From contig MHVD01000002.1 in NCBI GenBank assembly GCA_001823695.1, forward strand, positions 15,215 to 79,214: 64,000 nt of DNA, written 5' to 3'. The stretch is from Candidatus Zambryskibacteria bacterium RIFCSPHIGHO2_01_FULL_43_25 (lineage in GTDB: Bacteria > Patescibacteriota > Minisyncoccia > Phycocordibacterales > Zambryskibacteraceae). The position numbers and the translations under genes were made by a program. Of the stretch, positions 1-4,012 are shown piece by piece; within the stretch, counting starts at the first letter, position 1, and each line of letters begins with the position of its first letter. The notes under the pieces are model-generated. The model did no database searches. It was given only the letters and a program-made list of their open reading frames with translations, and had not been told where the DNA came from.

Positions 1-680
1 GCACTAAATACGCATCATTTATAAAAGCCCTTAGAACAAAGAAGGGCATTTCGCAGTTAGTAGTAGCCGAAAAACTCGGACTTTCACGTCAATCCTACAT
101 GGCTGTAGAGCGTGGAATACGCGAAATGACATTACAGGAAGCAGAAAAACTATGCGAACTGTATGGCATTTCAATTGAAGAACTTTCAAAAGTAACTGCT
201 CCGCAGTATGAAAAATACAAGCAGATGATTCTTGCGTATCTCAAATCTCCAGTATCAACAGATGGACGAGTGCCGAAAACGAAACTTGCAAAACTTCTCT
301 ATCTTGCCGACTTTGCTTGGTATTACAAAAAACTGGAAAGCATGAGTGGAATGCAGTACTTACGTCGTGCCTACGGGCCGGTCCCTGATTCGTACTTCCG
401 TGCGCTCGACGAACTTGAGGAGGAAGGAAAGATAACGATAGATCGCAAGGGAGAAGCAATGCTTGTGTCTATTGGTGCGGGAGCAATCCGTCATAAGCTT
501 GATCTTCTGCAAGGTGAAGAAGTAGAGCTTATGAAAAAGATTTCCACAAAATGGAAAGGTAAAAGAACTCAGGAAATTGTCGATTTTACGCATGAACAGC
601 TCCCGTACAAACTGTGTGCGCCGGATGAGGTTATTCCTTACGAACTAATCACACAGGAAAATCAGGAGTATGTCTACTAA
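1..680 (+). CDS. HTH_XRE-Panacea (DUF4065/SocA-like) antitoxin-type protein, 5' partial (continues upstream of window)
   Basis: ORF frame is open back to nt 3. The upstream part translates to ...GISQLVVAEKLGLSRQSYMAVERG..., a typical HTH_3/XRE. The C-terminal part KLAKLLYLADFAWYYKKLESMSGMQYLRRAYGPVPDSYF matches the Panacea/DUF4065 core. The 3' end overlaps the next ORF. Confidence 0.6.
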   Translation, partial: TKYASFIKALRTKKGISQLVVAEKLGLSRQSYMAVERGIREMTLQEAEKLCELYGISIEELSKVTAPQYEKYKQMILAYLKSPVSTDGRVPKTKLAKLLYLADFAWYYKKLESMSGMQYLRRAYGPVPDSYFRALDELEEEGKITIDRKGEAMLVSIGAGAIRHKLDLLQGEEVELMKKISTKWKGKRTQEIVDFTHEQLPYKLCAPDEVIPYELITQENQEYVY

Positions 681-1065
681 TTATGCGGTCATTGTAGAAA
701 AATTTGCCGAACGACATTACATCTCAAAATTTAAGAAAAAGCATAAAAATGCTTGGGATATTACATGGAACGCTATCGCAGAGCAATTTAAGCGCATAGA
801 ATCACTAATCGGAATTAATAGTATTGTGGAGATAATCTGCGATGCTGGCGACATAAAGATTTGTAAAACAGAATTTCGAATCGCAGGGCCTGGAAAATCT
901 AGGCATGCTTCGGGGAATAGGTGCATTATCGTGGTGCAGAAAAGTAGCGCGGTTGTACATGTGCTTCTTGTATACTCAAAAGGAGACATTGGTGGGACGA
1001 ATGAGACAACAGGGTGGAAAACAGTTATAAAAGATAACTACCCAGCGTATAGAGCTCTTTTATAA
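670..1065 (+). CDS. RelE/ParE-fold toxin candidate, translationally coupled to the upstream Panacea protein
   Basis: ATG at 670 overlaps the stop of the upstream gene by 11 nt, with AGGAG 5 nt upstream. The C-terminal block IKICKTEFRIAG...GNRCIIVVQKSSAVVHVLLVYSKGD resembles the RelE motif KIKLR..GYRLVYQV..VVVFVISVGKRE. Confidence 0.45.
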   Translation: MSTNYAVIVEKFAERHYISKFKKKHKNAWDITWNAIAEQFKRIESLIGINSIVEIICDAGDIKICKTEFRIAGPGKSRHASGNRCIIVVQKSSAVVHVLLVYSKGDIGGTNETTGWKTVIKDNYPAYRALL

Positions 1066-2944: not shown

Positions 2945-3565
2945 ATGACAAACAACAAAGGAACAAAATTTTTAATAAGTTTGCTTGTTGTCATCATAAT
3001 TATTCTGGCCGCTTTTTTGTTTCGGGACAAATTCTCCAAAAAGGAAGTTGTGCCGGAAGGCAGCGTGCTGGAGACCAAAGTTGCCGAAAAAGAAGTTTTT
3101 ACAAATGAAAAATACGGTTTCTCCCTGTCATTTAAAAGTAGTTTATCCGCAAAAAAATTGAGTGATAGGCAATTTTCAATAATTAACGGCGGTGAAGAGG
3201 TAGTTCTGGAAGGAGTGGTTCTGGACAATGCTGGAGAATCTGAGCTTCAAAGTTATGAAGAATTTGTCTTGGACAGTTCAAGACTTCTGTGCGCCGAACA
3301 GCTTGAATCAGAATCCAAATGTTTGCTCATAGAGGATATTAGCTCCTTTACCTCCAGCGCGGGAGTAACGGGCGAGATATTTTATATTCGCGGCATTGAG
3401 CCAAATAGTGGAGACCTGCGCGGGCCGGTCTTTGCTTTTAATGTCTCGGACGAAAGCTCGGGGACAGTAAGCGCCCTGCTCATCTTTAGCCCGTTTAATC
3501 AGACTTTTTCCCAAGGTCGCGACGGCTTGGTGCGGGAGATTGTTGACACTGTTGAGATTGATTAA
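2945..3565 (+). CDS. Hypothetical exported/membrane-anchored protein
   Basis: N-terminal TM/signal-anchor LISLLVVIIIILAAFLF. No recognisable domain. Confidence 0.4.
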   Translation: MTNNKGTKFLISLLVVIIIILAAFLFRDKFSKKEVVPEGSVLETKVAEKEVFTNEKYGFSLSFKSSLSAKKLSDRQFSIINGGEEVVLEGVVLDNAGESELQSYEEFVLDSSRLLCAEQLESESKCLLIEDISSFTSSAGVTGEIFYIRGIEPNSGDLRGPVFAFNVSDESSGTVSALLIFSPFNQTFSQGRDGLVREIVDTVEID

Positions 3566-3748: not shown

Positions 3749-4012
3749 ATGAACAAGAGATTGTTTGTCGGCGGTATTCCGTGGGCGGCTACAGAAGATG
3801 AGCTTCGTAGCGCCTTTGAGAAAGCCGGCACTATCGTTGACCTTCAGATCAGGAGAGATCCTACGAGGGACAATCAGTCGAAAGGTTTCGGCTTTGTCGA
3901 AATGGCGACTGATGAGGAGGCCCAAGCGGCTATTGATCTGCTCAATGGAAAAGACTTCCAGGGCAGAACTCTGACTGTCAATGAAGCTCGTCCGATGAGA
4001 CGACCAGAATAA
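3749..4012 (+). CDS. RRM-type RNA-binding protein (RNP-1 motif KGFGFVEM)
   Basis: LFVGGIPWAATEDELRSAFEKAG...KGFGFVEM...AIDLLNGKDFQGRTLTVNEA is a canonical RRM. Confidence 0.8.
   Translation: MNKRLFVGGIPWAATEDELRSAFEKAGTIVDLQIRRDPTRDNQSKGFGFVEMATDEEAQAAIDLLNGKDFQGRTLTVNEARPMRRPE

Follow-up and report, generated by a model that had tools for sequence, protein, structure and literature searches.

We analysed a 64,000-nucleotide stretch of contig MHVD01000002.1 (hereafter the window) from Candidatus Zambryskibacteria bacterium RIFCSPHIGHO2_01_FULL_43_25. The host is a metagenome-assembled genome (MAG) of the Patescibacteria, also called the candidate phyla radiation (CPR), in keeping with the reduced, CPR-like genome that a first-pass annotation, made from the letters alone, had supposed. 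At the start of the window lie two overlapping genes on the same strand, ORF1 and ORF2 (Table 1), which we interpret as the probable antitoxin and toxin genes of a PanAT-type cassette.

ORF1 combines a helix-turn-helix and a Panacea domain

ORF1 is read in the frame of nucleotide 3 to a stop codon at 678-680, and 225 of its residues fall within the window. One to seven codons are missing at the window edge: on identical contigs the gene is called at 232 amino acids (aa), seven codons more than the window holds. The real start is probably the second ATG (MSTKY, 227 aa), since most homologues begin there and it is preceded, at a distance of 6 nt, by a conserved -10 box; the window would then miss the start codon alone.

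The first-pass annotation had described ORF1 as an XRE-type helix-turn-helix (HTH) joined to a Panacea (DUF4065/SocA) domain, and the searches with hidden Markov models that it had proposed bear this out for both domains. HTH_3 matches residues 7-61 with 48.8 bits (Pfam cut-off 23, E 7e-13), and SocA_Panacea (PF13274) matches residues 95-202 with 46 bits (Pfam cut-off 25.7, E 1.2e-11), an essentially complete match that covers profile positions 1-112 of 113. The strings quoted in support are also present, KLAKLLYLADFAW at nt 282-320 and YGPVP at nt 372-386. ORF1 has 2628 homologues, and a precomputed PF13274 match is carried by 120 of 120 among the matches listed. The G, P and V of the motif are invariant in two alignments, of 49 and 25 homologues; GPV is the Panacea signature and is critical for neutralisation (Kurata et al. 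2022, PMC8832971).

The AlphaFold (AF2) model of ORF1 (mean predicted local distance difference test, pLDDT, 77.8) begins with an HTH bundle (residues 11-69), which a linker helix joins to the Panacea domain (97-211), and ends in a tail (212-232) whose pLDDT in the monomer model is low, 37-56. The tail has nine positions that are invariant across 49 homologues (C, D, E, I, P, Y, L, Q and V) and a net charge of -4, close to the family median of -5, and it is a candidate toxin-binding segment. A Foldseek search with the model matched the HTH part alone and recovered no solved Panacea structure. The best matches were the restriction-modification controller proteins C.BclI and C.AhdI, together with lambda cI, SinR and HipB, with template modelling scores (TMt) of 0.74-0.83 for the first four of these; the modelled HTH has the five-helix fold and superposes on lambda cI, SinR and the controller (C) proteins with TMt values of 0.63-0.83 overall. 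PADLOC likewise matches ORF1 to its 'Control_protein' model (E 3e-8).

Table 1 Features of the cassette in the window.
Feature	Position (nt)	Strand	Remarks
panA-like antitoxin gene, ORF1	3..680	+	5' end truncated at window edge; HTH_3 and SocA_Panacea matches
XRE-type helix-turn-helix DNA-binding domain of ORF1	21..185 (aa 7-61 of window translation)	+	PF01381, E 7e-13
Panacea (DUF4065/SocA) domain of ORF1, with GPV motif at nt 375-383	285..608	+	PF13274
Acidic C-terminal tail of antitoxin, conserved (CAPDEVIPYELITQENQEYVY)	609..677	+	Outside Panacea profile
SD (Shine-Dalgarno)-like elements before toxin start	655..668	+	AGGA 655-658 (conserved position -15), AGGAG 664-668
11-nt gene overlap (ATGTCTACTAA)	670..680	+	Antitoxin end ...YVY-stop and toxin start MST...
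RelE/ParE-fold toxin candidate (panT-like), ORF2, 131 aa, pI 9.5	670..1065	+	
Candidate active-site stretch of ORF2, family-invariant polar residues	865..1005	+	Counts over 101 sequences
Hairpin, 10-bp stem (GTTCGGATAG...TTATCCGAAC), right after toxin stop codon	1066..1103	+	Minimum free energy -12.6 kcal/mol

ORF2 is predicted to adopt the RelE/ParE fold

ORF2 runs from an ATG at 670 to a TAA at 1065. It has 427 homologues in a 90%-clustered database, and in a set of 1.84 billion representatives the family accounts for 214 clusters at the 50% identity level. Compared with eight homologues, ORF2 shows 190, 149 and 538 substitutions at codon positions 1, 2 and 3. We take it to be a real, conserved gene because its homologues are many, the substitutions gather at third codon positions and the antisense frame is not kept open. 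A 90-aa ORF on the minus strand inside the toxin gene (717-989), in the register that aligns its third codon positions with the third positions of the ORF2 sense frame, was rejected as a shadow ORF: it is open over at least 90 aa in only 23 of 77 relatives.

The AlphaFold model of ORF2 is confident (pLDDT 87.2, predicted template modelling score 0.83) and has the element order b1, a1, a2, b2, b3, a disordered loop of 13 residues, b4, b5, a3. Its two N-terminal helices pack on an antiparallel sheet, which is the RelE/ParE fold that had been proposed from the pattern of the sequence. The best 32 Foldseek matches of the model are all RelE, HigB2, YoeB, HigB or YafQ structures, and no ParE entry is among them. 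The nearest structural relatives of the predicted fold are thus ribosome-dependent mRNA endonucleases (RelE, YoeB, HigB2) and not ParE. A member of ORF2's 90%-identity cluster bears the UniRef name 'Addiction module toxin RelE'.

The ORF2 product is basic, with a net charge of +8. In 101 sequences that are 26-53% identical to it, a set of polar residues is nearly or fully invariant: K66 (codon 865-867) in 100, R84 (919-921) in 100, Y102 (973-975) in 99, K104 (979-981) in 100 and E112 (1003-1005) in 101, while position 79 (904-906) is K, H or R in all 101. The model places all of them on strands b3-b5 or where helix a3 begins. The set is compatible with an RNase active site, short of proof.

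The two genes are conserved as a pair in unrelated surroundings

A motif scan with one genome per species found 135 genomes with the toxin, from which 80 loci, nearly all from Patescibacteria, were fetched. In all 80, a full-length HTH-Panacea homologue of ORF1 lies directly upstream of the toxin gene on the same strand. The identities of the two proteins co-vary across loci (r 0.67-0.82), with a mean pairwise identity of 0.58 for the antitoxin and 0.57 for the toxin. The pairing extends to a distant branch, a subgroup of 38%-identical toxins from Oscillospiraceae and Clostridiales MAGs, where a gene with HTH_3 and SocA_Panacea matches precedes the toxin gene with a 20-nt overlap. These comparisons support the first-pass proposal of a Panacea antitoxin paired with a RelE-like partner.

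The genes beside the cassette vary from locus to locus: an MmeI-like type IIG restriction-modification enzyme with a DUF1508 gene in the source genome and a relative, and elsewhere an HNH nuclease, a ParE pair, a large serine recombinase or ordinary housekeeping genes. The cassette itself includes neither the restriction enzyme, nor the BtpA gene described below, nor any other neighbour. As in type II modules, the two genes are small, adjacent, co-oriented and coupled, and they remain paired across varied contexts. Conservation of a pair amid unrelated flanks is the mark by which toxin-antitoxin cassettes are normally recognised in genomes, and on these comparisons the locus behaves as mobile two-gene cassettes of this kind usually do.

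Several individual loci show variants of this arrangement. A single Paceibacterota MAG (SMAG_U8008) carries two separate copies of the cassette (L038 and L065; DATDSR010000043 and DATDSR010000052). At locus L063 (3004-3393) the antitoxin gene is intact and the toxin homologue is broken into two ORFs (3004-3144 and 3145-3393), so it is probably frameshifted or pseudogenised. In one lineage (L101:4062-5636, L102 and L103) the gene of a 524-aa serine recombinase (Resolvase/Recombinase/Zn_ribbon_recom) overlaps the 3' end of the toxin gene, a hint that an integrative element carries the cassette in some cases. At L014 (3751-4186) a classical toxin-antitoxin pair, made up of a 61-aa and an 81-aa gene with a weak ParE_toxin match, lies directly upstream of the PanAT cassette and adjoins smpB.

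Gene overlap, promoter region and transcript end

The 11-nt overlap of the two genes, which had been read correctly to the nucleotide from the sequence alone, implies translational coupling. Across 76 loci the spacing between antitoxin and toxin is -11 in 53, -14 in 14, +2 in eight and +3 in one, so that an overlap of 11 or 14 nt occurs in 67 of the 76. The AGGAG that had been assigned to ORF2 as its own ribosome-binding site is present; its placement does not suit that role, as it stops 1 nt short of the toxin ATG and a normal ribosome-binding site needs more distance. The SD-like element conserved in relatives is instead AGGA(A/G) at -15 (655-659 in the window). Within 20 nt before the toxin start, an SD-like motif is found in 41 of 77 loci, typically at -15 to -9.

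A stretch of about 65 nt before the antitoxin start (L001:5245-5330 of the source-genome locus, just outside the window) is conserved across otherwise unrelated loci, with the consensus ATGTCAAnnTTATCAACAnnnnATGTTTGAnTTTTTTACATAnnTnnTATATACTnnnnnnATG. This consensus contains two TGT-N11-ACA dyads, the second of which overlaps a -35-like TTGACT, and a -10-like TATACT 6 nt before the antitoxin start codon. Because that box is only 6 nt from the start codon, the region suggests that the antitoxin mRNA is leaderless. Of 77 loci, 43 have the double dyad, where shuffles give 0.015, a control that disregards the kinship of the sequences; the double dyad and the -10 box are conserved in 43-49 of the 77. 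By analogy with most type II systems, the HTH domain of ORF1 may repress its own promoter here.

The hairpin that follows the toxin stop codon has a z-score of -2.09, and six of 200 shuffles fold equally well. No T-run follows it and the terminator scan made no call there; the hairpin may mark where the transcript ends or be a scar left by recombination. Rfam returned one sub-threshold snoRNA match only, which we took as chance.

Relation to known toxin-antitoxin and controller systems

PanAT systems were defined by Kurata et al. (2022, PNAS, PMC8832971), who found an N-terminal HTH in 343 PanAs, described complexes of PanAs with their toxins and counted ParE-like toxins among the PanA partners. 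Two toxin groups in their Dataset S1 bear on ORF2: T14, which HHpred relates to HigB-2 (99.7%), RelE, YoeB and others and which is listed without an assay, and T28, related to YoeB/ParE at 89% (PMC8832971). The HTH-PanA pairs of T14 come from the Saccharibacteria Candidatus Saccharimonas aalborgensis and TM7 HOT_356, with the antitoxin gene before the toxin gene and a spacing of -11, and from Pedobacter, with a spacing of +2 (PMC8832971). The cassette in the window resembles T14 in its GPV-bearing Panacea/DUF4065 antitoxin with an N-terminal HTH, in having the antitoxin gene first and in its RelE/HigB-2-like toxin fold, as well as in its CPR host and -11 spacing; the +2 spacing of Pedobacter also occurs in the ORF2 family. 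The family differs from T14 in showing one fixed partnership, with no partner swapping, and the Zambryskibacteria host lies beyond the RefSeq sampling of Kurata et al. We conclude that the ORF2 family is very probably T14 or a close relative, an assignment that matches hosts, HTH-PanA, order, spacing and HHpred description and not sequence (T14 reference accessions WP_015641600.1 and WP_067091868.1). A pairing of HTH-PanA with a RelE/HigB-like toxin is thus a kind already catalogued in 2022. The module had been called possibly uncharacterised, which stands in the experimental sense and fails in the bioinformatic one, as T14 and T28 pairs are already listed (PMC8832971).

Toxins of this fold also occur in known pairs whose toxin is a ribosome-dependent mRNA endonuclease. 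Toxins of V. cholerae HigBA2, P. horikoshii aRelE-aRelB and S. aureus YefM-YoeB are 12-19% identical to ORF2 with no profile match, and they are shorter (85-110 aa against 131 aa). Unlike them, ORF2 has a low-confidence b3-b4 loop of 13 residues with a conserved S-x-K-x-SGNR and an extra C-terminal helix, and ORF1 is unrelated to the antitoxins RelB, YefM and HigA2.

On the antitoxin side, SocAB of Caulobacter crescentus is the founding Panacea/DUF4065 system, and its antitoxin shares PF13274 with ORF1. SocB inhibits DNA replication at the beta-clamp, and SocA is a ClpXP adaptor. The cassette is unlike SocAB in that ORF2 has the RelE fold, and the HTH and acidic tail of ORF1 point to direct type II neutralisation. 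In the MqsR:PanA pair of Burkholderia fungorum (ZBD-HTH-Panacea), a multidomain PanA with an HTH likewise stands beside a toxin of the mRNA-interferase type, and its HTH is thought to autoregulate the operon (NetFlax, PMC10440598). According to the same work, standalone Panacea neutralises directly while multidomain PanAs use other domains, and Panacea is proposed to be a sensor (NetFlax, PMC10440598).

The HTH of ORF1 is 26-38% identical to the C proteins C.BclI, C.AhdI and C.Esp1396I (TMt 0.67-0.82), and both the C-protein genes and the cassette have two adjacent dyad sites that overlap the promoter. C proteins, however, are stand-alone proteins of 70-80 aa that govern restriction genes, whereas the HTH of ORF1 is fused to Panacea and a toxin gene is always next to it.

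Neighbouring genes

Upstream of the cassette, the source-genome locus (L001:1833-4874) and an 82%-identical relative (L007:835-3939) both carry an MmeI-like type IIG/ISP enzyme of about 1013-1034 aa with N6_Mtase, MmeI_Mtase, Eco57I and Type_ISP_C matches. In the source genome a divergent DUF1508 gene lies between enzyme and cassette; none was called in the relative. The enzyme is not conserved at more distant loci. The source region may be a small defence island.

Downstream, a gene of the BtpA/SgcQ family (PF03437, E 1e-38; 1322-2095) has a GC content of about 0.55, whereas the cassette has about 0.41 and nearby sequence 0.35-0.48, so that the GC-rich island noted in the first-pass annotation is real and lies over this gene. 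The syntenic relative L007 has other genes at this position; the raised GC and this difference suggest that the BtpA/SgcQ gene is a locally acquired insert. The IS30-like fragment reported from the same region is not supported. The 45-aa ORF at 1145-1282 (MMKYKHFSIEEREQIQEF...) matches HTH_38, which is typical of IS30 transposases, below threshold over 24 residues (17.4 bits, where the cut-off is 27; E 0.0038). No IS30 model of NCBIfam matches, and blastn against plasmids found nothing; the ORF may be what is left of a transposase. A few kilobases downstream, an 87-aa gene (3749-4012) encodes an RRM_1 domain, a eukaryote-type RNA-recognition motif, and is kept on identical contigs.

A type II toxin-antitoxin cassette is the preferred interpretation

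In our interpretation ORF1 and ORF2 form a PanAT cassette, a type II toxin-antitoxin system carried on the chromosome, in which ORF1 is a three-part antitoxin made up of an XRE helix-turn-helix, a Panacea domain and a short acidic tail, and we give this reading as a whole a probability of about 0.72. By their sequence the two genes are co-transcribed and, through their overlap, translationally coupled. The antitoxin would bind and block the toxin directly; the basic toxin (pI 9.5) and the acidic tail (-4) are complementary in charge. The likeliest contact would be this tail, predicted to be disordered when alone, by analogy with the tails of RelB, YefM and Phd; the GPV-bearing Panacea core may be a joint or alternative contact. 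The conserved promoter region suggests that the HTH represses the operon at the two TGT-N11-ACA dyads overlapping the leaderless promoter. If the antitoxin were lost or triggered, the freed toxin would, as in related families, cleave mRNA on the ribosome and arrest growth, which may serve to stabilise the locus or to abort phage infection.

Several points weigh against this interpretation. ORF2 has no match in Pfam, where the search for RelE/ParE families had been proposed as a check, nor in NCBIfam, PHROGs, PADLOC or the sequences of the PDB, whether searched as a single sequence or as a 77-sequence profile; one of 101 diverged homologues matches the RelE family PF06296 of Pfam weakly (E 0.014). 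Aligned by hhalign with E. coli toxins, the ORF2 family profile reaches a probability of 1% with RelE and 0.2% with YoeB. The RelE alignment, which is non-significant, places R84 on the catalytic R61 and K66 on K54, and any equivalence to RelE K54/R61/R81 would lean on it alone. The RelE/ParE fold itself cannot tell RNases from gyrase-poisoning ParE toxins, and we infer the toxicity of ORF2, its neutralisation by ORF1 and its RNase activity alike. In some multidomain PanAs, moreover, the Panacea domain itself is not the neutraliser (NetFlax, PMC10440598). Finally, ORF2 has no relative in IMG/VR, GenBank phages or PLSDB plasmids, and a phage- or plasmid-borne origin and a role in plasmid addiction are therefore unsupported.

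The ambiguity of the fold leaves room for a toxin-antitoxin pair whose toxin is ParE-like and poisons DNA gyrase instead of cleaving mRNA on the ribosome. We consider this distinctly unlikely: the best structural matches are all RNases in both methods, with ParE missing from the 32 best of Foldseek, and in the family, as in RelE and YoeB, the face of the sheet bears a Lys/Arg/Lys/Tyr/Glu set, here invariant. ParE toxins are not known to have such a conserved catalytic constellation. That ORF2 belongs to no toxin family at the sequence level also suits a locus with no poison and antidote at all, where ORF2 would encode some RelE-fold partner without toxicity, for instance a co-repressor or a toxin that has decayed, and ORF1 would simply be a sensor-bearing transcription factor. 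In conservation the antitoxin equals or exceeds the toxin (0.58 against 0.57), where usually the toxin is the better conserved, and the sensory role proposed for Panacea would fit as well (NetFlax, PMC10440598). Such a locus nevertheless seems improbable to us, for invariant polar and basic residues in homologues of 26-53% identity argue for a maintained active site, ORF2 is strongly basic, and the gene overlap, varied contexts, two-copy genome and disrupted copy are typical of toxin-antitoxin cassettes.

A type VI mode as in SocAB, in which the Panacea protein hands the toxin to a protease such as ClpXP without inhibiting the toxin itself, has in its favour that the founding Panacea protein SocA acts in this way and that the two modes need not exclude each other (PMC8832971). 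It is very improbable here, given that all five PanAT pairs tested for complexes by Kurata et al. were stable, consistent with direct type II action (PMC8832971), and that the antitoxin-first order, the HTH domain and the acidic disordered tail suit classical type II systems. The resemblance of the HTH to restriction-modification controllers, in both structural and PADLOC matches, could also mean that ORF1 is the C protein of the neighbouring MmeI-like enzyme and the pair an accessory to it: the gene of about 1013 aa (N6_Mtase/MmeI_Mtase/Eco57I/Type_ISP_C) is found 1.2 kb upstream of the pair, both in the source genome and in the relative, and the upstream dyads look like C-box pairs. We rejected this as hardly credible, because the restriction enzyme is not conserved beside the pair. 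The neighbourhoods of more distant homologues that were inspected lack it while always retaining the two genes, and in the source genome the divergently oriented DUF1508 gene stands between enzyme and pair.

Within the type II reading, a more far-reaching and rather unlikely version would make the cassette a CPR-wide abortive-infection module, whose Panacea domain would respond to a phage cue by setting free a RelE-like RNase that the acidic tail of the antitoxin still tethers. If so, a single HTH-Panacea lineage would have been the toxin family's only partner in co-evolution, contrary to the reported hyperpromiscuity of Panacea, and the position beside the MmeI-like restriction enzyme would be that of a defence island.

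Significance of the cassette

The pair of ORF1 and ORF2 is an ordinary but cleanly defined PanAT cassette, and it leaves the current understanding of toxin-antitoxin biology unchanged. What it adds to the PanAT repertoire is a well-delimited, apparently monogamous toxin family that has no Pfam model and whose members come mostly from Patescibacteria, plus a Clostridia branch. Its fixed pairing makes it a clean and tractable model in which to study the neutralisation of a RelE-fold toxin by a Panacea antitoxin and to ask whether Panacea acts as a sensor, and the conserved acidic tail and the conserved leaderless two-dyad promoter ease the study of neutralisation. For the hosts, it means that very small CPR genomes retain such cassettes, at times in two copies.

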